Positions 3,013 through 37,692 of a stretch of DNA of 64,000 nucleotides are shown piece after piece. Origin of the DNA: a virus. Location: positions 1 through 64,000 of the IMG/VR virus record IMGVR_UViG_3300031551_000001; one strand, given 5' to 3'. How positions within the stretch are numbered: the first letter of the stretch is position 1; each line of letters starts with the position of its first letter. The position numbers and the translations under genes are program-made. A model generated the notes under the pieces. It saw nothing but the letters and a program-made list of their open reading frames with translations, ran no database searches and was not told the DNA's origin.

Positions 3013-3070
3013 TGACGCAAATATACAAAAAGTTTTTTAACCTGTTTTCAAAGAACTATCTCAGTAGTTT

Positions 3071-3094
3071 AAATTACTTATATAAAGTAGTTAG
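3071..3094 (-). repeat. dispersed 24-bp gene-end site, copy A (CTAACTACTTTATATAAGTAATTT)
   Basis: Overlaps the stop codon of ORF 3091..3393; five further copies in the window. Confidence 0.8.
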
Positions 3095-3393
3095 TAGCTA
3101 GTAAAGAAAAGACTTTCTGGTACTTTAAATTCTTTTCTTTCATCAGTCATAGCGTTTATTACTATAAGCTTGCCTTTTATCTTCTTTACATAATCTTCAA
3201 TGGCTTGTTCTGGACTTTTGCCGGTTCCATAGTCTCCGATAAGCATAATGCCCTCTTTAAGCTCTGCATCTTCAATTTTTGCAATCCATCTACCTTTCTG
3301 GTTTGCATATCTTCGCAATTCTAAATTACTATCAATTGTGTCTAAAAAGGCAAACAGATTAATGCTATGTGTATTTGAAGTTTCGTTTTTCAT
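3091..3393 (-). CDS. hypothetical protein (cassette-like)
   Basis: 100-aa ORF ending in the dispersed site. Confidence 0.7.
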   Translation of the reverse strand: MKNETSNTHSINLFAFLDTIDSNLELRRYANQKGRWIAKIEDAELKEGIMLIGDYGTGKSPEQAIEDYVKKIKGKLIVINAMTDERKEFKVPESLFFTSY

Positions 3394-5705: not shown

Positions 5706-6014
5706 TATATTAAAATTAAGAATTAAACAATATTATAAAATGTTTTTGTAATAAACAAATATTAGTTAACTTTTTTTGACCTGACATTCCTATTTGTTGG
5801 CCTCATCTCCTTATATCCTGCATAGAGAACAATAAATATAAGTATTAGAGTGAATAGTATCATTTTATACAAAATTTGTGTTTAAACCTTTATAAGATCT
5901 TTTAAGGACCAGGTTAATTTCCTGTTTGCTTAACAAAAGGGAGAGGTCAGTTTTCTCGCAGATGTATAATTGTCCGTGTTTTTCTATAGTGTACGTCATG
6001 GCGTTATTATAGAT

Positions 6015-9000
6015 TTATTCTGTGGCTTTTTTGATTGTTTCTTTAGCTTCTCTTATCATTGAGCTTTCATATTCTAATTTCAGATTGTCAGCAAATTTGA
6101 TAAATCTTTGTAATGCCCTTAACAATTCATTCCTTTGTTCCAGTAATTGGCGGGGAGTTAGATTAGTTTGATTAAATATTGCAATAGATTCAGTTTCAAT
6201 ATTTTCAATCCCACTATCTTTAAAAGTTGTTTCTTCCCATTTTTGCGGATAGAATTTACCGGAAAGTTTATCAAATCTTGTTTCTTCTATTCCGTGTAAT
6301 GGACATTTCATTGTTTCGTATTGGTGGATTCCTTTACTTGCACCACAATAAAAACATACATCTGTTTCGATTTGTGTTTTCATATTCCATATTTTAAGGT
6401 TATCATTATTCTAACAGAGAAATAAATCAATGCAGCTATACAAATAGCCGCGCATAGATAGTCATATTTAGTCCAGATTTTCATTATATTTTTATAAATT
6501 TACATGAAATTAAATCATAATAAGGAATAGAAATCTCAGAATTCGGTATGTTTTCCCCTTGCCAATAGTAACCATCTGTTTTTTTTATAAGGTTTGTTTT
6601 GTGGTTGGTTTTAGAAGAAAAAACAAAACATAAAATGTTTCCAAATCTTCGTTCTGAATATTTATATATTCTATGAACTGATTTTTTAGAATTAATATGT
6701 TTCACAAAGTAATGTGAACCAGTTTGTAAAACTGTTCCATCATTTAATACGTGGTTATTCATAATATTAAAGTTTTAGTTAATAATGTATTGTGCCAGCA
6801 AACAGAAACGATCTGTTACCCCTTATTATTTTGGGGTTGCCTTCATGCTGGCTGAAGATTACCGATATTTATCCCAATTATGTTCTTCTCTCCATTCTTT
6901 TTTATCTAAATCAATAACATAGAGATGTTCAATATCTCCATGTAACCCTGTAGTTGGTTCATAAGCACCACATTTCCAGTCTTTAGGAGATTCTATTGTG
7001 TCTGTGTCTTTCAGGTAACCTTGATCGGTCGCATACTTAGGTATTGTATCATACTCCATAGTGCCTAAAAGAATTAACCAACCGGAAGATTGAGGGATAT
7101 TATTACGAATAATATCCTTCTTAAGCCAACTCACAAATAAATCAAGGGTTGGTTTTACCCCTTCGGGGTATCCATCAGAATGGCGATAAAAATAAAGTTT
7201 TTTTGGTATAGCAAATTCCTTTGATTCGATAATAATATTAGCTCTTGTACTCATAGCATTATAATTTAAGTTAATAATTTACCAACCAATAGGTATAAAA
7301 ATACATAAGATCGTAGTAATCGCAATAGCAAGCGTAAAGACGATAGCTGCTAAAATGTTAGTTTGTTTTTGTAAGGGTGTTTTCATAATAAATCAAATTA
7401 ATGTTTTTAAATATTCAACAACTTTCTCATGTAAAATAACCAGTCTAACACAAGACCTATTATGAATATTATGGCCAGCATAAACATGAAATGATTTTTC
7501 AATAATCATTTTATTTAAAACTTTGTACAAATCAAACGGATTACTGGCTTTTAATTTATTTACAATTTCTTTATATTGACATTTAAAATCGTAATAATAA
7601 GGAGACATATTTTTATTTTTATCACTCATTATCGTTGATGAGTTTATAATAAAACAATTAGGGTGCATACTAATTCGTTTAATTTTCGAATTATCAGGGA
7701 GTTTTCTTATTTTACTATTAATTTTTCTTTTAATAGTTAATAACTCCCATTGTAAATAAAGTATACGATTTTCTACTTGCATGATTTAAAATTTAATAGA
7801 AGTTAATTGTTTCACATTTAATTCTTGCATTGGTGTTCCACATTCCGGGAACCCTTCTTTACATTTATTGAATTTTTCACCACTACCACAAGCACAAAGA
7901 TCAATTCCCCAATTATTAACACAATAATTGCAGTTATCCCAATTATTTTCTTCAGGAACTTTCATGGTAGGGAAATATTTTTTAAATAATTTAACAGGCA
8001 TAGAGTTTTGGACTTCCTCTCCTTTTTCATTTTGATAAAATATAGTAATTGCCCCGCAACTACATTTAAAAATATTAATTTGTGTTTTCATTGTATTGTA
8101 GAATTACATCATTTTTGATACACATCCTTGATAAGTATAATTAGTATGTAATGCTTCGTTTTCTTCTACTTCGAAAACAGCAACATTATTAGTGTCTTCC
8201 TGAAAATGTTTGTAGTACCATGCCTGTTCTGCATTGTCTGCTTGCATATCAATGCCTTCAGGGTCAAAGTTTGTAGCTTTCCACATACGGATAAATTCGT
8301 CTTTGACCTCTTCCAGATTTTCACTTGCAAAAACTTCTTTAGCTATTTGCTGTCCATTTTTGTAAGTTCCAATTTTGTAAATTGTTTGTGGTTTCATAAT
8401 AATATAGTGTTAATATGTGTTTATCCTTCTGTTAAATATTTAATAATTAATTTTTCTGCTATATCCATAGTAACGTTAATATCTTCAGGAGAATATAATA
8501 GCTTATCAAAGAATATTAAATCATTCTCAATTCCCCATTGTAAAAATTTTTCAATTATAAATCCTTCTGGTTCATGTTTTTGAATACATTCAATAATAAA
8601 TGAATTATGCATACATGACACTTTTGACATTTCTTTATATGTTTCCAGCGCGTGCTCTCTTAATTCTTTTAATTTTGTTGTTTTCATTTTATGCGAATAT
8701 AATTTTAATAATTCCAATATTCAATATAAGCTGTTTTGTTGTAATTAATTAAGCCTTTTGCATGCTTTTCATGTTGTACATTCCATAGATATTTAAAAGG
8801 AATATTCAGAGATTCACAAACTCCATAAATAGCATTTTCCGCCCCTCTATGATAATCTTTATTAGAATGTTCCAGCCTCACATAATAAGCCAACCAACTT
8901 AAAGCAATAAACTGCTCATTTGTTAGTGTGTTTTTATAGTCAATTTCCTTTTTCATAATATTAGATTTTAATTATTTGTTATTTTTTTTTTAACTCACCT

Positions 9001-11482: not shown

Positions 11483-11800
11483 TCATAACAGCCATATTCA
11501 CTATTAATTTTGATAGGTCTGTTGCCTTTGATTAGGACAGCATAATAAGGATGAAATGTTATGATCCTGTGTGACCTTTTGGTGTATTATGATGTTTGCG
11601 GTTATGCAGATCTCATTAATGTACCTGGGTGTGCGAATGTGCCGGATCGACGGGGGGTGGTTAGCAAAATTGGGCTTTCCCGGTGGGGTGATACCCCCGT
11701 ATAATTACATATTATTTGGAAGCTCTACCCCTCCCACCAATACTCCATCACTTAGACCACCAATTCCCCTCCTTCCCCACCCTTTTCTTTGTACACATTT

Positions 11801-11824
11801 GAGTTATTAATACAAAGTAGTTAG
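11801..11824 (-). repeat. dispersed 24-bp gene-end site, copy B (CTAACTACTTTGTATTAATAACTC)
   Basis: 17 nt after the stop of ORF 11842..12123. Confidence 0.7.
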
Positions 11825-11841
11825 CGTCATTTACTAACGCA

Positions 11842-12123
11842 CTATTTAAACCGAAAATGTTTATTCCAAATTTCCTCATCCATATCATCATTCCATCCTT
11901 GTATTGATTTTTCGTGCCTAAATTCAGCTTCCTCGTCTCCAATTTCATAAGGCAGTACATTTCTACGCTCTTCAAATTCTAAATCTTCCTGATCACATCC
12001 GAAGCATAAATCATTTTCTTTGGACAGGTATTTTGTTTGCACTCCACACCTAATACATTCACCTTCATATAAATGAAAATTTGGGTCAACTTTCTTTGCT
12101 TTTTGTCTTTCTTTATTTGTCAT
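11842..12123 (-). CDS. hypothetical protein with CxxC..CxxC
   Basis: Start moved to MTNKERQ, coupled to the stop of the upstream gene. Confidence 0.65.
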   Translation of the reverse strand: MTNKERQKAKKVDPNFHLYEGECIRCGVQTKYLSKENDLCFGCDQEDLEFEERRNVLPYEIGDEEAEFRHEKSIQGWNDDMDEEIWNKHFRFK

Positions 12124-12719
12124 AATAATTTCCCCCATTGATTTGCTATTGCTTCTGCAATTCCGGGGAAAGTCCTCGATCTTACTTTCCATCTATCTAG
12201 GCTTGGTGTGGCATAATATACCATTGACCATTCTTTGTATTCATCAGTTCCTTTTTCGGGAGGATTTAATTTATTCGTTGGTAAAAGTTCAGGAATACCC
12301 CTCAACCATAAACAGGTAGCTTTGAAATAAGGATCACCAAACCACCAGGGTTGGATAACTTGGTCTTGTTCGCGTGTAATTCTTTGTTTAGTATGTTTGT
12401 GCTGAATAGGATTTTCTGAATAACCGGGACGCGGATCATTTATTGTTAAATTAAATATACTAGTTGCTTCTTCTAATTCATCCCATCTTCCCTCTTTTTC
12501 ATATAACCATCTGACGCCACAATTAGCCATAACCCTGCATTCATAATGAAATCCTATAAAATCCCATGTGTCTTGTATTACTGATCTGAAATCAGCTTTA
12601 ATATGCTTTCCTGGGATTTCAGTATCTAAAAAATCACAAGACCATGCATTATGTCCTCTTTTTTTAAATTCCTCACGAATACGACCTGAAAATTCACATG
12701 CTATTAATACTTTTGCCAT
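12120..12719 (-). CDS. phage DNA cytosine methyltransferase-like protein
   Basis: VLIACEFSG..AWSCD, ENP, QPWWFGD..KATCLWL, RSRTFPGIAEAIANQWG family signature. Confidence 0.75.
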   Translation of the reverse strand: MAKVLIACEFSGRIREEFKKRGHNAWSCDFLDTEIPGKHIKADFRSVIQDTWDFIGFHYECRVMANCGVRWLYEKEGRWDELEEATSIFNLTINDPRPGYSENPIQHKHTKQRITREQDQVIQPWWFGDPYFKATCLWLRGIPELLPTNKLNPPEKGTDEYKEWSMVYYATPSLDRWKVRSRTFPGIAEAIANQWGKLL

Positions 12720-12786
12720 TATAATATTAGGTTTGTTGCTTTTTATATTGTTTTTTGTATATTATTAGAAATAGGAGTTAGTTTTA

Positions 12787-12837
12787 TTTTGCCAGTCAAA
12801 TGGAATATGTTATGAATTCTTAATGTAAAGTAGTTAG
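12787..12837 (-). repeat. dispersed gene-end site, copy C, within a 51-bp direct repeat
   Basis: 45/51 identical to 13102-13152; core CTAACTACTTTACATTAAGAATTC at 12814-12837. Confidence 0.85.
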
Positions 12838-12845
12838 GCGTAATG

Positions 12846-13070
12846 CTACGGATTACATTCTTCTTCATCTATCCAAAATGTTTTATCATCAAACTTTGCA
12901 ATCTTGGCAGTTCCTACTGTACTAAATTGGTATTCAACAGAAAATGACCTCATAGGGCAAACAACGTCAGGATCTTTACATCTAACATTTTCTTGGTAAA
13001 AATCCCAAACCCTTTCTATTTGTTTATCTGTCATTTTCATTTCCTGTATAAAATATTCTTTATTTGTCAT
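12846..13070 (-). CDS. hypothetical protein (cassette-like)
   Basis: 74-aa ORF between repeat copies D and C. Confidence 0.7.
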   Translation of the reverse strand: MTNKEYFIQEMKMTDKQIERVWDFYQENVRCKDPDVVCPMRSFSVEYQFSTVGTAKIAKFDDKTFWIDEEECNP

Positions 13071-13101
13071 AATTATATTCTATTTATATTGTTCTTTTTT
13101 G

Positions 13102-13152
13102 TTTTGCTTGTCAAGTGGGATATGTTATGAATTGTTTATGTAAAGTAGTTAG
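13102..13152 (-). repeat. dispersed gene-end site, copy D, within a 51-bp direct repeat
   Basis: Core CTAACTACTTTACATAAACAATTC at 13129-13152 overlaps the last codons of ORF 13136..13507. Confidence 0.85.
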
Positions 13153-13507
13153 TTATATTATCTATTTTACTAATTATATGTAGTTCTCTATCTTTTAATT
13201 TCTTTTCATCAAAAAATCTAATTGCTTTTCTGAATGCTTTTCGTTCTGTGTCCTCATCAATGATTAGAATTTCATTTGTATCAACATCCTGTATTGTGAA
13301 CCGATAACGTTTGCTAAAATCAAATATAGCATAATTTGAGGGTTTTGAGATAAATTCTTTCCCGCGCTCTACTTCTATTATGGCAATTATTTCAATGCTT
13401 TCATTTTTTTCGTTTTGCCAAAAATTATCTTCTGCCCCTCCTGGGGTTATAGCCTGTATTATTTTACTATATTTTGTTGTAAATACTTCATAAGTTTTAG
13501 CCATCAC
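13136..13507 (-). CDS. hypothetical protein (cassette-like)
   Basis: 123-aa ORF. Confidence 0.7.
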   Translation of the reverse strand: MMAKTYEVFTTKYSKIIQAITPGGAEDNFWQNEKNESIEIIAIIEVERGKEFISKPSNYAIFDFSKRYRFTIQDVDTNEILIIDEDTERKAFRKAIRFFDEKKLKDRELHIISKIDNITNYFT

Positions 13508-13904
13508 ACAATATTTTAAGTTATATAATCAATGTAAAATGCTTTTTCCTAAATATGCCTTAAATGTAAAATATATTTTACTTTATTTGCTTTTTGTCTT
13601 TTTTCGTATATGCACAATAGCGTTATATATGTTATCGTGCAAATTAGCGTTATTATATTGATGTTCAATATATCAGGAATAAAGCATATTTCAGAATATA
13701 TCATAAAAAGTGCATATTTCTAATTCATTACAAATGGATGATAAATTCTCTCCCCCTTACAAACAGATGACTTACAAACACAATTGTATTTTTCACAATG
13801 CATACAATTGTCTTCTCCCCGAACAGCAACACCATTTCTCACACATTCCTTATATTGATCTCTGAACGATTTATACATAAATATTCAAATTTTTCTCTAT
13901 TCAA

Positions 13905-14192
13905 TCAAGCAATTTCCATTAATTTATTTAAAATACAATCAGCTTGAGTATTTAACTCACGAATACGATCAAGTAAAATGGAAAGACGATCTTTAAAGAA
14001 GTTTGGTTCTTGTTTTTTCTCCGTGTCTTCGTTAAGCTTGTTCCAGCTTTGCCTTTCACCACTAATTCTAAAAATTCTGTTTTCTATAGAATCATTTTTT
14101 GCTTTTATTTCATCCAATAATGAATTGCTTGTTGTTAAGAATTCATTCAAAATAGTTTTTCTTTTTGCTTCGCTTTCTGATATTGTTGCCAT
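13905..14192 (-). CDS. small coiled-coil hypothetical protein
   Basis: 95 aa, own promoter box at 14216-14223. Confidence 0.7.
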   Translation of the reverse strand: MATISESEAKRKTILNEFLTTSNSLLDEIKAKNDSIENRIFRISGERQSWNKLNEDTEKKQEPNFFKDRLSILLDRIRELNTQADCILNKLMEIA

Positions 14193-14259
14193 TGTTTTAA
14201 AATTTAATTATTAAACAAATTTAAACCAAATAAACAATAAATACAAATAAAAAACAGGG

Positions 14260-14400
14260 TTATTCCCCCTGTTTCTTCAATTTTTCATACTGTTCGAATG
14301 AAATTTTGCCTCTTGCGTAGAGGCTGGTGGCTTGATCTACTCCTCTTTTGTTTCGACCGTGTTTTTTATCTCCACCTTTTTTCCTTTGTACATTTTTCAC
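14260..14400 (-). CDS. 46-aa basic peptide (MKNVQRKKGGDKKHGRNKRG...)
   Basis: Translated by hand from a GTG start; stop lies in the loop of the terminator hairpin at 14251-14274. Confidence 0.6.
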   Translation of the reverse strand: MKNVQRKKGGDKKHGRNKRGVDQATSLYARGKISFEQYEKLKKQGE

Positions 14401-14458
14401 GACATTGAATGTTGATTACTATGTCATGATTACCTCCTTTTTAAAGATTAATAAAAAA

Positions 14459-14597
14459 GTGTTCGTTATGGTTCTTTTGACGCTTTGGCGGCTCTATTTA
14501 CTAAGGCATGAAGCCTTAGCGACCATCGGAATAGACCAGAACACCCGACTGACTATTGCCAGCCTACCTCCGCATAAAACCCAGTTTTTACACGGAT
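14459..14597 (-). ncRNA. structured 5' leader or ncRNA
   Basis: Directly after promoter 14603-14610: hairpins 14570-14595 and 14547-14564, then a multibranch domain closed by GTGTTC/GAACAC (14459-14544). Confidence 0.6.
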
Positions 14598-14641
14598 CAA
14601 TACAAAGATATATATTTTTATTAAAAGCAAATAGTGATTTT

Positions 14642-14665
14642 GAATTGTTTATGTAAAGTAATTAG
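14642..14665 (-). repeat. dispersed gene-end site, copy E (CTAATTACTTTACATAAACAATTC)
   Basis: Overlaps the stop of ORF 14662..15048. Confidence 0.85.
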
Positions 14666-15048
14666 CACCCAGTGAAAAGCACATGCACAGTTTCTGTATG
14701 GCAAAATGCAGAACATCTTCCACAGGTCTTACATAAATTACCATTTGTAGCTCTTTCGTAATGATGCCATTCGCTCGGATTATCGTATTGCCAACCGCAT
14801 TTCAAATCACATACTAATATCTCTTTATTAACTATTTCAGGGTTTTTTATTTCTTCTTCATCGTTACTTGTTGATTCATAATTAGCGTTTTGCCAATCAG
14901 CCCAATTATCTCTATGTGAACATATATCACACATTCCGGCCTCGCACCCATAACACTCAGAATTAATATCATCAACGGGTGCTAACACCGTATTATAACT
15001 CATTTGGGTTTCGGTGTTGTTTTGTTTATTTGTCTCTATTTCCATCAC
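14662..15048 (-). CDS. Cys-rich hypothetical protein (cassette-like)
   Basis: 128 aa; N-terminal part reads through GTTAGCACCC, complementary to GGGTGCTAA at the gene end. Confidence 0.7.
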   Translation of the reverse strand: MMEIETNKQNNTETQMSYNTVLAPVDDINSECYGCEAGMCDICSHRDNWADWQNANYESTSNDEEEIKNPEIVNKEILVCDLKCGWQYDNPSEWHHYERATNGNLCKTCGRCSAFCHTETVHVLFTGC

Positions 15049-30666: not shown

Positions 30667-31199
30667 AATTTTATTATTTGTACCTGTCCTCTTACAGCTT
30701 GTTTAAATGCTTTACTTACGTTAATGGCTCTTATAAGGTCTGTTCCGTTAAGTGGTATTTTTCCAGACAAAAGGGAAGATGTCATGAGACTCCCAATAGC
30801 CTCTGCGTGGCCTACTCCTATTGAAGCGTATGGAAGCTCACAAGACAAGACAGTAAAATTATTATCAATCTCAAAAATCTTTTTGCCTGTGTTTATTAAT
30901 ATATTCCACAATCCATCAAGCGTAGATACCACATCATTATCCCTTAAATGATCAATAAAATTAGTATACACAGAATCTTCATCAATCAAATCTTTTGCGA
31001 TAGGATTAAATGATGTTTCATTGATCATTTTTCTTAGTTCGTGGATTATTATTGTTTTACCGGCAACACCAATTAAGATGTCTTTGTGTTGGAATATCTT
31101 CTTGTAATTTGTTCTGTAAACATTATCGCCATCATAATAATATGAATCAGAAGCCATCCACGACCCCTTACTCGATATAATTGTTGCTACTGCGCTCAT
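30663..31199 (-). CDS. HslV/proteasome-like Ntn-fold protein
   Basis: MSAVA..MASDS..KKIF..IGVAG..YASIGVG..AIGSL. Confidence 0.7.
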   Translation of the reverse strand: MSAVATIISSKGSWMASDSYYYDGDNVYRTNYKKIFQHKDILIGVAGKTIIIHELRKMINETSFNPIAKDLIDEDSVYTNFIDHLRDNDVVSTLDGLWNILINTGKKIFEIDNNFTVLSCELPYASIGVGHAEAIGSLMTSSLLSGKIPLNGTDLIRAINVSKAFKQAVRGQVQIIKL

Positions 31200-32094
31200 T
31201 TTTTATTATTTTATTAATATTTTCTGCACTTATTCTAAATCCAGCAGCCCCCTTATGACCACCACCCCCTAGGCTTTTAGCTATAATAGAACAATCAGCT
31301 TTTCCATTATCATTATATAAACTAAAATTATATGTTCCATTTGCATAATGGAAACAAGCCGCCCCATCATATCCGTCTTTATGATAATTTATGCCAAAAT
31401 TTATGGGATTAAAACGTTCTTTATTTACACAAATAAATTTCCTAACAGTGGTAATATTATTTTCTATTAATTCTACAAATTCTATAGGAAATCCATTTTT
31501 ATATGATTGCTTCGCCTCTGTACATAAGTATTTATAAATTTCTTTTCCAGATGAAATCATTCTATCAGTTAAAAATGATTCTTTTATACTTTTTTCAAGC
31601 CATTTATAACATTCGTCAACATTACTTATGTTAGCTCGGGCAGCATATTGAAATTCTAATACCTTTTGTTCTTCATTGGTTCCTTTGTGCCTAAAGCAAT
31701 CATATCTACCGAGTAAACGAACAAATTCTGGCATTGGTTCTTTAGGGAAACAATAATCCCAAGTAAGTTCACATGCGGCAAATTTATTGTCTAGATAATT
31801 AATACAAAAAGATTCTCCATCTCCAATAAATTTCTTATAATCATCAATAGCTGATTTATGGTGATCAATCCATATAAATTGCCATCCAGATCCTTTTGCA
31901 TATTTTTCCATTATCTCAATTGGAAATGAAACGTCAACCATAACAATTTTTTCGTTTTCAGGAATATTAGGAAATTCATCTCCATAATTCCATCCAAACA
32001 ATTTAAGATCAATTTCTTTTTCTTTACACCATTTTTTTACGATAGCAGCGCTACACCAACCATCTAAATCTATTGAATGATAAATACAATACAT
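31168..32094 (-). CDS. DHH/DHHA1 phosphoesterase
   Basis: YHSIDLDG, MVDVSF, WIDHH, GGGGHKGAAG. Confidence 0.92.
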   Translation of the reverse strand: MYCIYHSIDLDGWCSAAIVKKWCKEKEIDLKLFGWNYGDEFPNIPENEKIVMVDVSFPIEIMEKYAKGSGWQFIWIDHHKSAIDDYKKFIGDGESFCINYLDNKFAACELTWDYCFPKEPMPEFVRLLGRYDCFRHKGTNEEQKVLEFQYAARANISNVDECYKWLEKSIKESFLTDRMISSGKEIYKYLCTEAKQSYKNGFPIEFVELIENNITTVRKFICVNKERFNPINFGINYHKDGYDGAACFHYANGTYNFSLYNDNGKADCSIIAKSLGGGGHKGAAGFRISAENINKIIKNERSSNNYIE

Positions 32095-32575
32095 AATTTT
32101 AATGTTTTATGAGTGCTTAATTAAGAATGTTCCAATTTCAAGACATTGTTCTTTGGGAATTGTAATTTGAATAACAACATCTCCATTATCATTTTCTATC
32201 CAACTGGCCTTGTCAAGAGTAAAAGTGTGTCCTTCTTTTGAAGTTCCTTTAAGAATATTCTTTTCAATTTCTCTTTCTGTTTCTTCTATTATATCCTCAG
32301 TAGATTGGCCGTCAGAAGGAATGTCACTGTATAGTGGTTCTTTGATATTCGATGTAAATGGCGGAGGGTTGACGCTTTCTTTTGTCGGCTCAACAGGCGA
32401 TAATTTACCTGCCTTTTTAAGTTTACTTCCAATTTTTAATAAGTCTTTCATATAAAGTTTCCGTTAGTTTCAAAAACAAAGTACTGAAATATATTTTTAA
32501 TAAACAAATATTTTTGATGAAAAATTAATAAAATAGTTGTGCAAATATTTTTTCATGTGAATATTTTTTCATAAT

Positions 32576-32632
32576 ATTGTCAACGGACGAATATAAATTG
32601 TCGTTTTAATGTAATTTATACCTTGTTAGCTG
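32576..32632 (+). other. attC-like imperfect hairpin upstream of the methyltransferase
   Basis: GTCAAC-GGACGAA-TATAAATTG...TAATTTATA-CCTT-GTTAGCTG. Confidence 0.65.
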
Positions 32633-33723
32633 ACTGGTGTGGATAATTTAGTACAAACTTTAATAAAAGAACGAATGATAGTAAAAGAAAAAAAAGGAGG
32701 GTGTTTTTTTGACTTAATACAAGGAGATTGTTCTATTGAAAACGAATATATAAAAGATGGTAGTGTTGACCTTATTTTAACTGATTTGCCTTATGGTACT
32801 GTAAAGGGTATGGGTGGAGATATGGCGAAATATAAACACCTAAGTAATGCAAGTTGGGACGTTGTTATACCTACCGAAAAGATAATGCAGATTGCAAACA
32901 GAATACTTAGGAAAAACGGCAAAATGGTATTGACCGCAAACCAACCGTTTACAACTGAGCTAATAAGTAAGCAGATACCTAACTTGCCACATTGCTATAA
33001 TATGTATTGGGATAAAATGCACTTTGCAAATTGTTTGGTTGCAAACAAAGCTCCAGTAAGCTACATGGAGGATATTTTGGTTTTTAGTAAAGATTATGAC
33101 TTTGAAAACTTGCACCCACTTAGAGAATACTTTAGTAATGTACTTTCTTTTATTGGGCTTAAAAAGAAAACCATAATTGAAACAATAGGGCAAAGGGCAG
33201 ACCATGTATTTAGGGTGAAAAGTTCGCAATTTGAATTATGCAAAAAAGAAACATATTTGGCTTTGATTGCTGAATATAGGATTAACAATATGGATGACTT
33301 TTTAAATTATACGGAACTTGAAAACATAAACGAAAAATACACAAGCACTTTTAATCTATGGGAAGGAAACAAACACAAAAGCAATATACTTAAATACAAA
33401 AAGGATTATGATGGGCTCCATCCAACACAAAAGCCTGTATTATTGCTTGAAGATTTGATTAAGACTTTTAGCAATAAAAACGACTTAGTTGTTGATTTGA
33501 CAATGGGAAGCGGAAGTACTGGTGTAGCTTGTAAGAATACCAAACGTAACTTTATAGGAATTGAAAAAGACGAGAAGTATTTTGATATAGCAGTAAACCG
33601 AATTAAAATTATTGAACCAAAACCCCAACAACTTTGAAAAAGTTGAAGCGGGCTGGCTTTTTTCTTTTACGGATGAACCATATAACCTTGATTAAGTGAA
33701 CGAATGTAGTGCTTGCAGCTAAC
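32585..33723 (+). mobile_element. putative integron-type gene cassette carrying a DNA methyltransferase
   Basis: Bounded by AAC at both junctions; GTTAGCTG (32625-32632) is complementary to CAGCTAAC (33716-33723); opposite strand to the resident genes. Confidence 0.6.
32639..33637 (+). CDS. N4/N6 DNA methyltransferase (beta class)
   Basis: LILTDLPY (DPPY variant), HPTQKP, DLTMGSGSTG, IGIEKD. Confidence 0.92.
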   Translation: MDNLVQTLIKERMIVKEKKGGCFFDLIQGDCSIENEYIKDGSVDLILTDLPYGTVKGMGGDMAKYKHLSNASWDVVIPTEKIMQIANRILRKNGKMVLTANQPFTTELISKQIPNLPHCYNMYWDKMHFANCLVANKAPVSYMEDILVFSKDYDFENLHPLREYFSNVLSFIGLKKKTIIETIGQRADHVFRVKSSQFELCKKETYLALIAEYRINNMDDFLNYTELENINEKYTSTFNLWEGNKHKSNILKYKKDYDGLHPTQKPVLLLEDLIKTFSNKNDLVVDLTMGSGSTGVACKNTKRNFIGIEKDEKYFDIAVNRIKIIEPKPQQL

Positions 33724-33742
33724 TACTTTATATAAACAATTC
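33719..33742 (+). repeat. dispersed gene-end site, copy F (CTAACTACTTTATATAAACAATTC)
   Basis: 81 nt after the methyltransferase stop; strand follows the gene. Confidence 0.85.
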
Positions 33743-34198
33743 AAAATTTTAATCTTATAACTTTTACTGTCATTAGCGGTATGTAAAATTTTTTTACTAA
33801 CTGAATTTTCTCATAATTTTTAGGCATAACTCCAATTTAAAAGAAAAGTTTGCCAACAAGAAAGAAGGATGTTTTGCATCCTTTTCGAATGTTGTGCCAA
33901 ATTTATGTGCGAAGCTTATAAATTTAAGTTGTGGTATAAATAAAGAACTTTAAAAAGAAAGAAATTAAAAATAAAGAAAGAAAAATTTTACCTGATCGAA
34001 CAAATGTAAGTCTATGAACGTTTCAAACCCAAAAAGGGAATCAATAAAAAACCGACTGAGTGCGCTGGTAGCTAAACACACAATCGGTTTATTGAAAAAA
34101 AATATCTTATTGCTACCAGCCCCGGTTAAATATTTAAAGAACTGGCACAAATATACAAAATATTTTTAATTGCTTTTTTCGAATAAAATTTTTTTCAT

Positions 34199-35447
34199 AA
34201 ATATTTCGGCAAAGAAGCCCATTGATGCCGAAGGCTCGATGGGAGGAATTGCCGCCCCGTAATTAAATTGTTTTCAAATATAAGAAAATATATTAAATAA
34301 TTTGCTATCTTTGTGATATGAAATTGACATTGAAAATAAAACTTTTGCCCACTGACGAACAGACTAACTTGCTTCTCGAAACGATGAAGGAAGCTAATGC
34401 TGTTTGTAATGCCATATCTGATGTTGCTTGGCAAGAAAGGATTTTCAATAATTTTAAACTCCATCACAAAGTTTACCATTCTTACAAGGCTACGTTTAAA
34501 CTTTCTTCTCAAATGCTTATCAGGCAAATAGCTAAAGTTGCTGATGCTTATAAGCTGGATAAGAAAACTAAACGTACTTTTAATCCACTTGGCGGTATCG
34601 CCTACGATAGTAGGATAATGACTTACAAGCCTGACAATGTGATTTCTTTGTGGTGTATTGGTGGCAGACAAAAGATTGATTTTGTTTGCCACAACCCTGC
34701 TTATATTCCTTACATCAAAGGGGAAGCTGATTTGGTTTACAAGAAAGGTAAGCTTTACTTGTTTCAAACTGTTGATGTACCCGAAGAAGATGTTGAGGAC
34801 GTAGAAAGCTTCGTGGGTGTGGATTTTGGTTTGGTTTCGATTGCCACACTTAGTAATGGAAAAGAATTTAACTCTAAAATACTTCAAGAATATCGAGAAA
34901 AAAGACAAAAAGTAAGAAGCTCCGTTCAAAGCAAACGCACAAGAGGAAGTAAAAAACTCTTGAAAAGGCTTTCTGGCAGAGAACGTACACACGCTTCTAT
35001 CACTAACCATACGATTGCGAAACAAATTGTTCAAATTGCAAAAGAAGAAAACAAAGGAATTGCTTTGGAAGATTTGAAAGGCATCAGATTTTCTTCTTTG
35101 AAAAAAGGCAAAAAGTTTAGAACAAAAGTTGGAAAGTGGTCTTTTAATCAGTTGCGTCAATACATTTCCTACAAAGCTATTCTTAATGGTGTTCCTGTTG
35201 TTTTGGTTAATCCAAGATACACAAGCAAAACTTGTAATAACTGCCACCACATAGGAAATAGAAAAGGAAAAGTATTTGAATGCAACAACTGCGGAAACAG
35301 TATGGATGCCGATGTTAACGCATCGCTCAATATTGCTACGCTGGGGGCAATCGTAAATTTGCCTGAAAAGTCGGATATGTATAGCTGCGCTTTGCATTAT
35401 TCAGATTTAAAGCCCACCCCATCGCTTTGCGTGGGTGGGTAGTTTAC
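34199..35447 (+). mobile_element. TnpB-only IS200/IS605 (IS1341-like) element
   Basis: Left hairpin AAGCCCA..TGGG with GAAG at +16..+19 after TCAT; right hairpin AAAG-CCCACCC..GGGTGGG, then TTAC; no tnpA. Confidence 0.8.
34318..35442 (+). CDS. tnpB: RNA-guided endonuclease TnpB
   Basis: RuvC triad VGVDFG / ALEDL / DADVNA, YTSKTC, zinc finger CNNC..CNNC. Confidence 0.95.
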   Translation: MKLTLKIKLLPTDEQTNLLLETMKEANAVCNAISDVAWQERIFNNFKLHHKVYHSYKATFKLSSQMLIRQIAKVADAYKLDKKTKRTFNPLGGIAYDSRIMTYKPDNVISLWCIGGRQKIDFVCHNPAYIPYIKGEADLVYKKGKLYLFQTVDVPEEDVEDVESFVGVDFGLVSIATLSNGKEFNSKILQEYREKRQKVRSSVQSKRTRGSKKLLKRLSGRERTHASITNHTIAKQIVQIAKEENKGIALEDLKGIRFSSLKKGKKFRTKVGKWSFNQLRQYISYKAILNGVPVVLVNPRYTSKTCNNCHHIGNRKGKVFECNNCGNSMDADVNASLNIATLGAIVNLPEKSDMYSCALHYSDLKPTPSLCVGG

Positions 35448-35948
35448 CGGATAACTTTTCAACAACTCTTTCTTTTTATTGTAAAATATACTAAAATCAG
35501 TATTTGGCCACTCTTTTTTATAATTTTCTCTTCCTTTTTCTGTTCCCTGGTCAATAAGAGTGTGTTCAATCGGGACCAATTGCATTATATTATCCGGGTT
35601 ATATCTGAATAAGGGATATTGTTTTTTGGGAAGAATATGTGCAAACATATTCAGAAATAAATTGTGATTTACTTTAGTTAAATCTCTTCCACTTATTTCA
35701 GATCTGTGAGGACGATTTTTCCATATCCACCTAAACATATTCAGCTCAGATTTGAATCCCCACTGAAACACATCAAAGTCATATTTATTTTTTGACAAGC
35801 ATTTGTTTCTTTCTTTGATGGATTTCTTCTTTATTGTTCGTACAATATCACTTCTCAGGAATTGATGTATTTTACAATATCCTTTCCCTGTATTTTTATC
35901 TGTTCCGAAAACGTTGTAATTACAATTCTGGGCACTACAAATTCTCAT
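35397..35948 (-). CDS. NinG/HNH-like protein with C-terminus altered by the IS
   Basis: C..C..YC..H, SEISG, FAHILPKKQYP..NI..L...EH; last 16 aa are encoded by the IS right end. Confidence 0.65.
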   Translation of the reverse strand: MRICSAQNCNYNVFGTDKNTGKGYCKIHQFLRSDIVRTIKKKSIKERNKCLSKNKYDFDVFQWGFKSELNMFRWIWKNRPHRSEISGRDLTKVNHNLFLNMFAHILPKKQYPLFRYNPDNIMQLVPIEHTLIDQGTEKGRENYKKEWPNTDFSIFYNKKKELLKSYPVNYPPTQSDGVGFKSE

Positions 35949-37692
35949 TTTCTTTTTTCTTCTGATGTCTAACCCTGTATTCTTTACGCTTGTAGGCATC
36001 AGCACCACTAAGCAAATAGTTGTTAATATCGGAAATTGTATCCATAAATCTTTTCTTATGCCTGTTTTTTTTATATGAATTTGTTTTTTTTACCGAACAC
36101 CTCTCCAAATGAGTTCCCTTGTCTATTCCTTGTAAATAGATTGTTTTGTAAATTTCCAACCTACTTTCTCTTGACAGGGGTTGAAGCAAAAATGATTTAT
36201 CTATTTCTTCAAAATCTATAATCATGGTATAAAGATAAAAAAAATAATTGAGAAAAAATTGTTTTTTATTAAAAATTTACATAAGTTTGTCAAGAAAATT
36301 TGTGGTGTTTAATATATAAATAATTAAAGTATTGGAAGCTAACGAATTAAAGGAAGAATCGCAGAAATTTATTATTTATCTGTATAAGCACTTCATAAAA
36401 ATACGAAATATTATTGAAAATATACGTAATCGTAAAGATATGATAGATGCGGATGACTGTGATGTGATTGAGCCATTACACGAACACTTCCTAGAAGAAA
36501 GGCGCATGGCTGATGACTAACGGAAGCTGAAACTCCCCTTCGGGGGAGCTTCTTTTTAAAATTAAAGAGATGGAGAGAGAAAATATTCTTAAAAGTGATG
36601 AATACTGGGATGAAAAGATTGAATTGGATTTTTATGGTTTTATGGGGAAAGAACTAAAAAAATAATTAAAATCTGATATATTGAAAATGAAAAATGAACT
36701 CATTAAAATATTAGAAAAAAAAATGGAAGCACCAATGACTTATTTTATGAAAAAAGTTTTAGCTAACCCTATCGCAAAAAATATTTTTTTTAAAAAAATA
36801 CAGAGTGATGAGAAAAATTTAACGATATCAAAGAATAATAATCAAATGAAGGTATTTGCTTTTTTATATAATGATTGTATTTACGAGAGCGCAGAAGCAA
36901 CAGTCAGCTTGCATTTAACAAGAAAAGGGGCGCAGTCAGCACTTCGCAAACATAAAGCAAAAAAGAAAAAAGAATGGAAAGAAATTTATTCAGGTGATTT
37001 TGAAGCAACATCACCATTCGGAACTCATGAATGGTGGGGTGTATGTGAAATGGAAATATTAAATCCTTAAAATTATGGAAAGATTTATTGTTAAATATTG
37101 CAATGGAAAAATAAGACAACAAAAAGGAATTAATGCAACTTATCAATATCTTATTGGTATAGGCGTTATAGCCTATGTAATAGATACGAAAACAGGTGAG
37201 ATTATGTATGGTGATAAAGACGAAGCCTTACATACTGAAAAAATTTCGATTTATGAAGATTCGGATATGATAGTACCTAAAATTTAATGACATGAAAGAA
37301 TATAAATATAATCCAACACGCTTTATTAGATTCATAAACAAATTCACAAAAGATTTCGTTGACATTCCTTTTGTCGGGGGGACTTTCACTACAGATAGAA
37401 GAAGGATGGCAAAATTAGCACATTATTATGCTGGGTGGAATATATTCAGTAATAAAAAAGAAAAACCTAAATTTCATTTTTATGTTTTATGGAATAAAGG
37501 AGATGAGGATGTTACCATTGGAGGAATATATTTTGGTAAACCATTAAGAGATGGATCAAATATATTGACTTATGGTGTGAATTTAGATACGAATGAAATT
37601 ATAACAGACGATGTATTTAACAATGGATTAAAAAAAATAGGCATTATTTATGATGATTTTTTCAAATTACTTGAAATAAAAAATATGGCATA

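Follow-up and report, generated by a model that had tools for sequence, protein, structure and literature searches.

Modular shuffling of phage genes by recombination has been described for the PeSL regulatory cassettes of T4-type phages, each of which combines a strong promoter with a stem-loop terminator (Arbiol et al. 2010, PMC2839356). Here we describe a locus with a comparable layout in the virus record IMGVR_UViG_3300031551_000001, the first 64,000 nt of which are the window. In this locus a module carrying an orphan DNA methyltransferase gene occupies a slot whose right boundary coincides with a short motif dispersed in the genome. The likeness to the PeSL system is that a short conserved motif recurs between small, non-essential genes in a hyperplastic part of the genome and, at the one copy open to comparison, borders a replacement between close relatives, and that a mini-circle carrying a gene and a hybrid motif is the expected by-product. 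The differences are that the motif here has no stem-loop and no recognisable sigma-70-like hexamers, that its promoter role is only putative, that the left edge of the slot is a motif-like end of ~9 nt and not a full copy, that the phage is unrelated to T4 and that circles were not seen in contigs. Because the motif lacks a stem-loop and its promoter role is only putative, we do not count it as a PeSL member.

Integron cassettes offer another comparison. The integron crossover falls at G|TT of the consensus GTTRRRY. Like integron cassettes, the methyltransferase module is a promoterless-looking single-gene unit at a fixed site, with boundaries that can be written as G|TT on the reverse strand and a foldable palindrome across the junction of the circle that the window would give. 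Unlike them, it comes with no integrase here, its palindrome lies 5′ of the gene and is not reproduced in an alternative cargo or at the other motif copies, and the repeated motif is non-palindromic and stays with the backbone rather than the cargo. The module also has a selfish neighbour, which resembles TnpB-only IS200/IS605 elements in its subterminal hairpins, its lack of terminal inverted repeats and its precise presence or absence without target duplication. The two are distinct: this neighbour lies 475 nt to the right of the module and has different ends. As for the gene itself, it shares PF01555, the order of motif IV before motif I, HPTQKP and GSGST with orphan beta-class N6-adenine methyltransferases (DpnA, CcrM, M.MboIIA and the methylases of Cellulophaga and Polaribacter phages), and differs in that its motif IV reads DLPY, not DPPY.

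Slot boundaries and alternative cargos

We found that the methyltransferase module, 1,139 nt long (32585–33723, plus strand), is one swappable unit in a hyperplastic region and is replaced as a whole in relatives. The 35.9-kb IMG/VR contig L083 (record G001) is 91–98% identical to the window across 25.4–39.9 kb, with mosaic gaps. The conserved left flank of the slot (32452–32584), upstream of a resident 114-aa gene and ending in ATTGTCAAC, is 92.5% identical with L083 up to 32588, where identity ends; it resumes exactly at 33724, with TACTTTATATAA. At the slot, L083 goes from ...ATTGTTAAC GGAC into 434 nt of unrelated DNA and out again through ...GCCAAC TACTTTATATAAGTAATTCAAAATTTT. Its cargo codes for a cysteine-rich open reading frame (ORF) of 108 aa, for which no Pfam or PHROG family was found. 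A contig of run X5 matches the window up to 32585 and then continues in a third sequence of 134 letters, which is absent from the genome and from 114 collected loci. An earlier reading of the window made from its letters alone (the sequence-only reading) had proposed 32585–33723 as a unit; these boundaries are confirmed both by L083, with another cargo between the same flanks, and by the X5 contig.

A third arrangement was found in a 4.3-kb JGI contig (L085) and in record 26 of X5, where 32528–34040 is swapped for ~320 other letters and the TnpB element is absent. The left flank fits L085 only as far as 32527. When the ends of two cargos were compared, no start or end sequence was common to them beyond what shuffles gave (fractions 0.32 and 0.82). 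Scans of IMG/VR for further haplotypes with the 114-aa protein and three flank patterns returned the L083 contig only, and the JGI scan returned this contig again (as L086) together with L085; L083, L086 and L087 are one contig, found by the IMG/VR and JGI scans. Parts of the stretch without cover in X3–X5 were not used as evidence. Three loci considered as relatives for synteny (L001–L003) were set aside, as they share a DHH gene only.

The slot lies between two blocks of genes, with minus-strand genes from 139 to 32451 and plus-strand genes from 36332 onward. Between the blocks are the plus-strand ORF at 32639–33637, the plus-strand TnpB gene at 34318–35442 and two minus-strand ORFs at 35397–36225. 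The methyltransferase gene is antisense to the conserved ORF on either side, 32107–32451 (−) and 35397–36008 (−), so that its placement opposite to the resident genes, pointed out in the sequence-only reading, is borne out for both of them. Other genes of the region also come and go. The DHH phosphoesterase gene (31168–32094, −) is missing in L083, L085 and the contigs of X3, X4 and X5, with a joint at 31197->32109. At 36563–37291, two small plus-strand ORFs are missing in an X5 contig, which has 9 other letters at the joint.

The dispersed motif

A self-search revealed that the sequence at 33718–33747, which takes in the right half of the empty site drawn in the sequence-only reading, has further copies in the genome. 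Using a profile built from six copies, nhmmer detected eight copies of this ~30-nt motif at E<0.01, with conservation running from (G)CTAAC through TACTTTAYATAAACAATTCA. The copy at the right boundary, GCAGCTAAC|TACTTTATATAAACAATTCAAAAT, spans 33715–33748 on the plus strand (E 3.1e-8), and L083 has the same motif in the same place. The remaining copies are profile matches on the minus strand, at 14635–14669, 13121–13153, 12806–12840, 11797–11825 and 3062–3098 in the window and at genome positions 75457 and 78712 beyond it. All eight lie between same-strand ORFs. The motif starts −17 to +36 nt from the end of the same-strand ORF in seven of the eight copies, and 78 nt from it in the methyltransferase copy; the next same-strand ORF begins 5–87 nt downstream in five of the eight.

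Among 114 loci (1.15 Mb), of which 79 have homologous methyltransferases and 26 have homologs of a different gene flanked by the motif, the motif was seen in the L083 contig only, indicating that it belongs to the backbone and not to the cargo. The left edge of the slot also resembles it. The last 9 nt of the left flank score as the 5′ part of the motif, ranking in the top 1.1% of all genome 9-mers for the window and in the top 0.06% for L083, and the left-flank end of L083, TTGTTAAC, is identical to the start of the 78712 motif copy. Since the left-flank end is motif-like, the rejoined site would look like an ordinary motif copy, and to that extent the sequence-only reading of an empty site holds. 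At the one copy covered by a relative, an indel is bounded by the motif at its right edge and by 9 nt of motif-like sequence at its left edge.

Sequence inspection and folding revealed neither an inverted repeat nor a stem-loop in the motif. It is also unlike the upstream regions of four phi14:2 middle genes, and no sigma-70-like hexamers were recognised in it. A scan of the region for sigma-70 promoters and terminators gave no excess over shuffled sequences, and Rfam gave a single chance-level match over 31500–37500 (E 0.4).

A loose end of run X1 at 33718, considered as a fourth cargo, was rejected as the genome's own motif copy at 14669 (−), aligned to the wrong place, and a loose end of X5 at 33720 is ambiguous for the same reason and was not counted. 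Elsewhere in the window, the four minus-strand copies at 11797–14669 form an array that brackets small ORFs without a family (74, 199 and 116 aa, and others) and looks like a cassette array; the copies at 12806–12840 and 13121–13153 bracket the ORF of 74 aa. Scans with the 199-aa protein and with a 161-aa protein found no syntenic relative for this array.

Explanations for the turnover of cargos

The sequence-only reading had drawn an attC-like hairpin across the junction of an excised circle. The strings on which it built are all present, at the left end ATTGTCAAC (32576–32584), GGACGAA (32585), TATAAATTG (32592), TAATTTATA (32612) and GTTAGCTG (32625), and at the right end GCAGCTAAC (33715–33723), TACTTTAT (33724) and ATAAACAAT (33732). 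The outer boxes pair at 8 of 8 positions as claimed, and the inner stem of 9 bp exists as 8 Watson–Crick pairs and one G-T. When the circle junction was joined in a script, it folded as had been drawn, with a minimum free energy of −8.4 kcal/mol under DNA parameters and z-scores of −1.8 on the plus strand and −2.3 on the minus strand. In the integrated context, the AT-rich imperfect hairpin that forms the inner stem (32592–32620, plus strand) falls outside the minimum-free-energy fold (−4.5 kcal/mol). To gauge chance, we applied a rule that requires an AAC shared by the two sides of an ORF of at least 100 aa, no more than 250 nt away from it, and looks for the reverse complement of the terminal 8-mer in the first 60 nt. 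Genome-wide, 10 of 2,140 AAC pairs conformed to it, at six ORFs; with any shared trinucleotide there were 510 among 133,492 pairs, at 76 ORFs. The surrounding 5 kb holds 246 inverted-repeat pairs of at least 10 nt. Thus the hairpin and box features alone are not beyond chance; the boundaries themselves are, by comparison with relatives.

We incline, with somewhat more belief than doubt, to the reading that the orphan methyltransferase is one of at least three cargos of a fixed slot, turned over by recombination in the flanks and the motif in a PeSL-like manner. The slot is part of a hyperplastic region that two resident minus-strand genes enclose in this 82-kb salt-marsh phage. Its right edge is the ~30-nt motif (GCTAAC TACTTTAYATAAACAATTCA), whose eight copies follow closely on the stop codons of small accessory genes, and its left edge is a short TGTYAAC that resembles the 5′ end of the motif. 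Cargos would change by recombination of the conserved flanks and the motif between relatives that infect the same cell, and double-strand breaks made by adjoining selfish nucleases (TnpB here, GIY-YIG/NUMOD3 in L083) may stimulate the exchange. Several observations weigh against this reading. The motif-like part of the left edge is only ~9 nt, a length at which ordinary homologous recombination would not work; the motif lacks a stem-loop and is unlike the sequences upstream of the phi14:2 genes; the link between motif and indels rests on the one copy that can be compared with a relative; and three unrelated cargos that start within 4 nt would suit a site-specific process equally well. Furthermore, the left breakpoints vary by haplotype, so that some events are plain mosaicism. 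In its general form, plain mosaicism would consist of illegitimate or microhomology-driven replacement, with selection sparing the resident promoter and the downstream signal and with a purely regulatory motif. We regard it as possible rather than probable, and it remains a strong rival because the left breakpoints at 32527, 32585 and 32588 are not identical. The right breakpoints (33723 and 34040) differ as well, cargos share no terminal sequence, and the region holds many other indels. Against plain mosaicism, the right junction falls exactly at the 5′ edge of the motif in both cargo-bearing haplotypes, the end of the left flank is motif-like in the same register, and the three cargos start within 4 nt of one another.

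The other explanations involve a dedicated enzyme. It is unlikely, in our estimate, and so far unsupported that the motif serves gene capture as a landing pad, with an enzyme unlike tyrosine or serine recombinases inserting unrelated single-gene cargos exactly after YTAAC; the common starting point of the cargos would suit it, and either a host factor or the Y1 HUH protein of the phage could be that enzyme. Were this so, an empty site would be a normal motif copy, and the eight copies would mark eight captured genes. We hold it quite unlikely that, as the sequence-only reading had it, an integron-like cassette is excised as a circle with an attC-like hairpin and inserted at a core after AAC by a tyrosine recombinase, perhaps encoded by the host. 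The reverse-strand geometry does suit G|TT crossovers at GTTAGCT and GTTGACA; the boundaries G|TTAGCT and G|TTGACA each depart from GTTRRRY after GTTRR. One site is common to three cargos, and the circle junction of the window can fold with outer and inner stems of 8 bp each. The rejoined site would resemble a motif copy. The arms of its proposed 9-8-9 core agree in only 6 of 9 positions. However, the 81.9-kb genome gave 0 matches to PF00589 or PF00239 at E<=1 (the PF00589 control was positive in 14 of 14 genomes, the PF00239 control in 13), which leaves the proposed tyrosine-recombinase core without a phage-encoded partner and a host enzyme as a possible one. Nothing comparable folds in the cargo of L083 (z −1.3 and −0.2), whose first 150 nt do not contain the reverse complement of its final 6 or 7 nt. 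Only two of the eight motif copies have an inverted terminal 7- or 8-mer within 3 kb upstream, the outer-box rule is matched by chance at six ORFs, and the hairpin lies 5′ of the gene where attC sits 3′. In homologs from 79 loci, DNA similarity is confined to 32709–33644 (in 120 of 165 blastn rows) with no common ends, so that, among the matches listed, homologs share coding DNA only; the motif is missing from other methyltransferase contexts. Neither the circle nor the empty-site form was found in contigs or related genomes: the joint 32584->33724 and its back-joint are not among the 14 joints of four runs, where contigs may miss rare forms, and the IMG/VR and JGI scans gave no empty or circle joint, the IMG/VR flank patterns matching only the filled L083 contig. 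An integron-like mechanism is therefore not supported, and with no common ends among homologs and neither junction found, cassette capture fails on the terms set in the sequence-only reading itself, subject to the rare forms that contigs could miss. Mobilisation of the cargo as single-stranded DNA by the phage's own Y1 TnpA, with insertion 3′ of YAAC without target duplication and use of a left-end hairpin, is in our view highly improbable. A Y1_Tnp (IS200/IS605 TnpA) gene is present at genome 72806–73168 (−), beyond the window (E 8.5e-36); all three cargos can form a hairpin 8–12 nt from the left boundary, as read by eye and not folded individually; and the last letters of the left flank, as of both cargo ends, are YAAC. 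These three hairpins are dissimilar, however, one being AT-rich with 9 bp and the others GC-rich with 5–6 bp. Moreover, no right-end hairpin matches the left one, the cargo termini have no mutual similarity, and the adjoining TnpB element uses other ends (flank ...TTTCAT, end ...GTTTAC).

If the motif guides exchange, as in the recombination reading that we favour, shuffling of the PeSL style would extend from T4-type phages to an unrelated lineage of marine or salt-marsh phages that uses a different signal, and the slot would be a concrete site at which such phages take up defence-related genes, orphan methyltransferases among them. For now, the locus is a clearly bounded case in which accessory genes turn over next to selfish nucleases; it is of use to annotation and population genomics and offers no new mechanism.

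The methyltransferase gene and its surroundings

The cargo gene codes for an orphan beta-class DNA methyltransferase (32675–33637, plus strand). It matches PF01555 (N6_N4_Mtase) with an E value of 3.3e-31 and 109.4 bits against a curated cut-off of 26.7, over profile positions 1–220 of 221, and phrog_67 with an E value of 1.3e-62. Its nearest solved relatives are DpnA, CcrM and M.MboIIA. The ORF opens at GTG 32639, and because most homologs align from residue 25–26 of the long ORF, ATG 32675 is the likely start. Motif IV, DLPY (residues 37–40, window 32783–32794), precedes motif I, TMGSGST (near residue 275), which is the beta-class order, and an HPTQKP motif is also present. Across 78 homologous loci motif IV reads DLPY in 72, DPPY in 4 and DLPF in 2, so that DLPY is the norm of the subfamily. 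Amino-acid identity to IMG/VR phage proteins reaches 80%, and nucleotide identity to methylase genes of Polaribacter and Cellulophaga phages is 65–74%. The enzyme probably modifies N6-adenine and likely protects the phage DNA against host restriction.

Upstream of the gene, a pattern scan detected a candidate Bacteroidota-type promoter, TTG-18 nt-TAATTTAG (32623–32651, plus strand), with one mismatch to TAnnTTTG. The pattern was derived from the upstream regions of the four named phi14:2 middle genes, which show TTG-N20-TAnnTTTG. The candidate lies 23 nt upstream of ATG 32675 and overlaps the inner box GTTAGCTG of the hairpin discussed above. Judging from this consensus match, the methyltransferase may carry its own host-type promoter, and the candidate would offer a mundane reading of the 5′ leader of the module.

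The record is 81,885 nt long with a G+C content of 33%, is classed as linear by IMG/VR and has a completeness of 90% by CheckV. The same DNA is present in full in two salt-marsh metagenome runs, and the 21 runs listed include none recorded as RNA. A crAss-like affinity, considered for this phage, was not backed, as tblastn of 9 structural ORFs against phi14:2 at 50–100 kb gave no match at E<1e-5 and PHROG gave matches to the large terminase and the portal only; the family of the phage was left open. The final 100 nt of the record (81786–81885) recur at genome 175–274 and the final 200 nt do not, which makes it a short repeat close to each genome end rather than the overlap of a simple circle.

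To the right of the slot, the stretch from the motif to a terminator-like hairpin (33749–33913) contains no ORF of 35 aa or more, and its part 33751–33813 is replaced in an X4 contig. The hairpin itself, at 33865–33883, lies inside 33816–33913, which is 97% conserved with L083. The stretch 33749–33913 could be a small RNA. Further right, a resident conserved segment downstream of a 203-aa gene (34041–34198, minus strand) is shared with L085 at 87% and contains a long hairpin with a T-run after it on the minus strand. The hairpin at 34050–34125 shows compensatory changes, with GCTGGTAGC...GCTACCAGC in the window and GGATGGCAC...GTGCCATCC in L085, and is accompanied by a second stem, AACCGA...TCGGTT, ahead of the T-run on the minus strand. 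This structure probably serves the 203-aa gene as its resident terminator.

Next to this segment lies the TnpB-only element of IS200/IS605 type (34199–35447, plus strand), with GC-rich subterminal hairpins. Its gene matches PF07282 (E 6e-24) and the NCBIfam model guided_TnpB with 168 bits against a cut-off of 100. The element is absent from X3, X4 and X5, with joints at 34198->35448/9, and its empty site is also found in L085; in all of these the empty site reads ...TTTTTTCAT|[C/T]GGATAAC.... The insertion changes the 3′ end of the minus-strand 203-aa ORF. If the element works like known TnpB elements, the flank past its right end is presumably the guide region. At the corresponding place L083 has a GIY-YIG/NUMOD3 homing-endonuclease-like gene (L083 4615–5358, −) and a RepL-like gene (5806–6231, +), and two short copies of the right-end hairpin sequence of the TnpB element occur in the same contig (L083rc 6013–6057 and 9694–9733).

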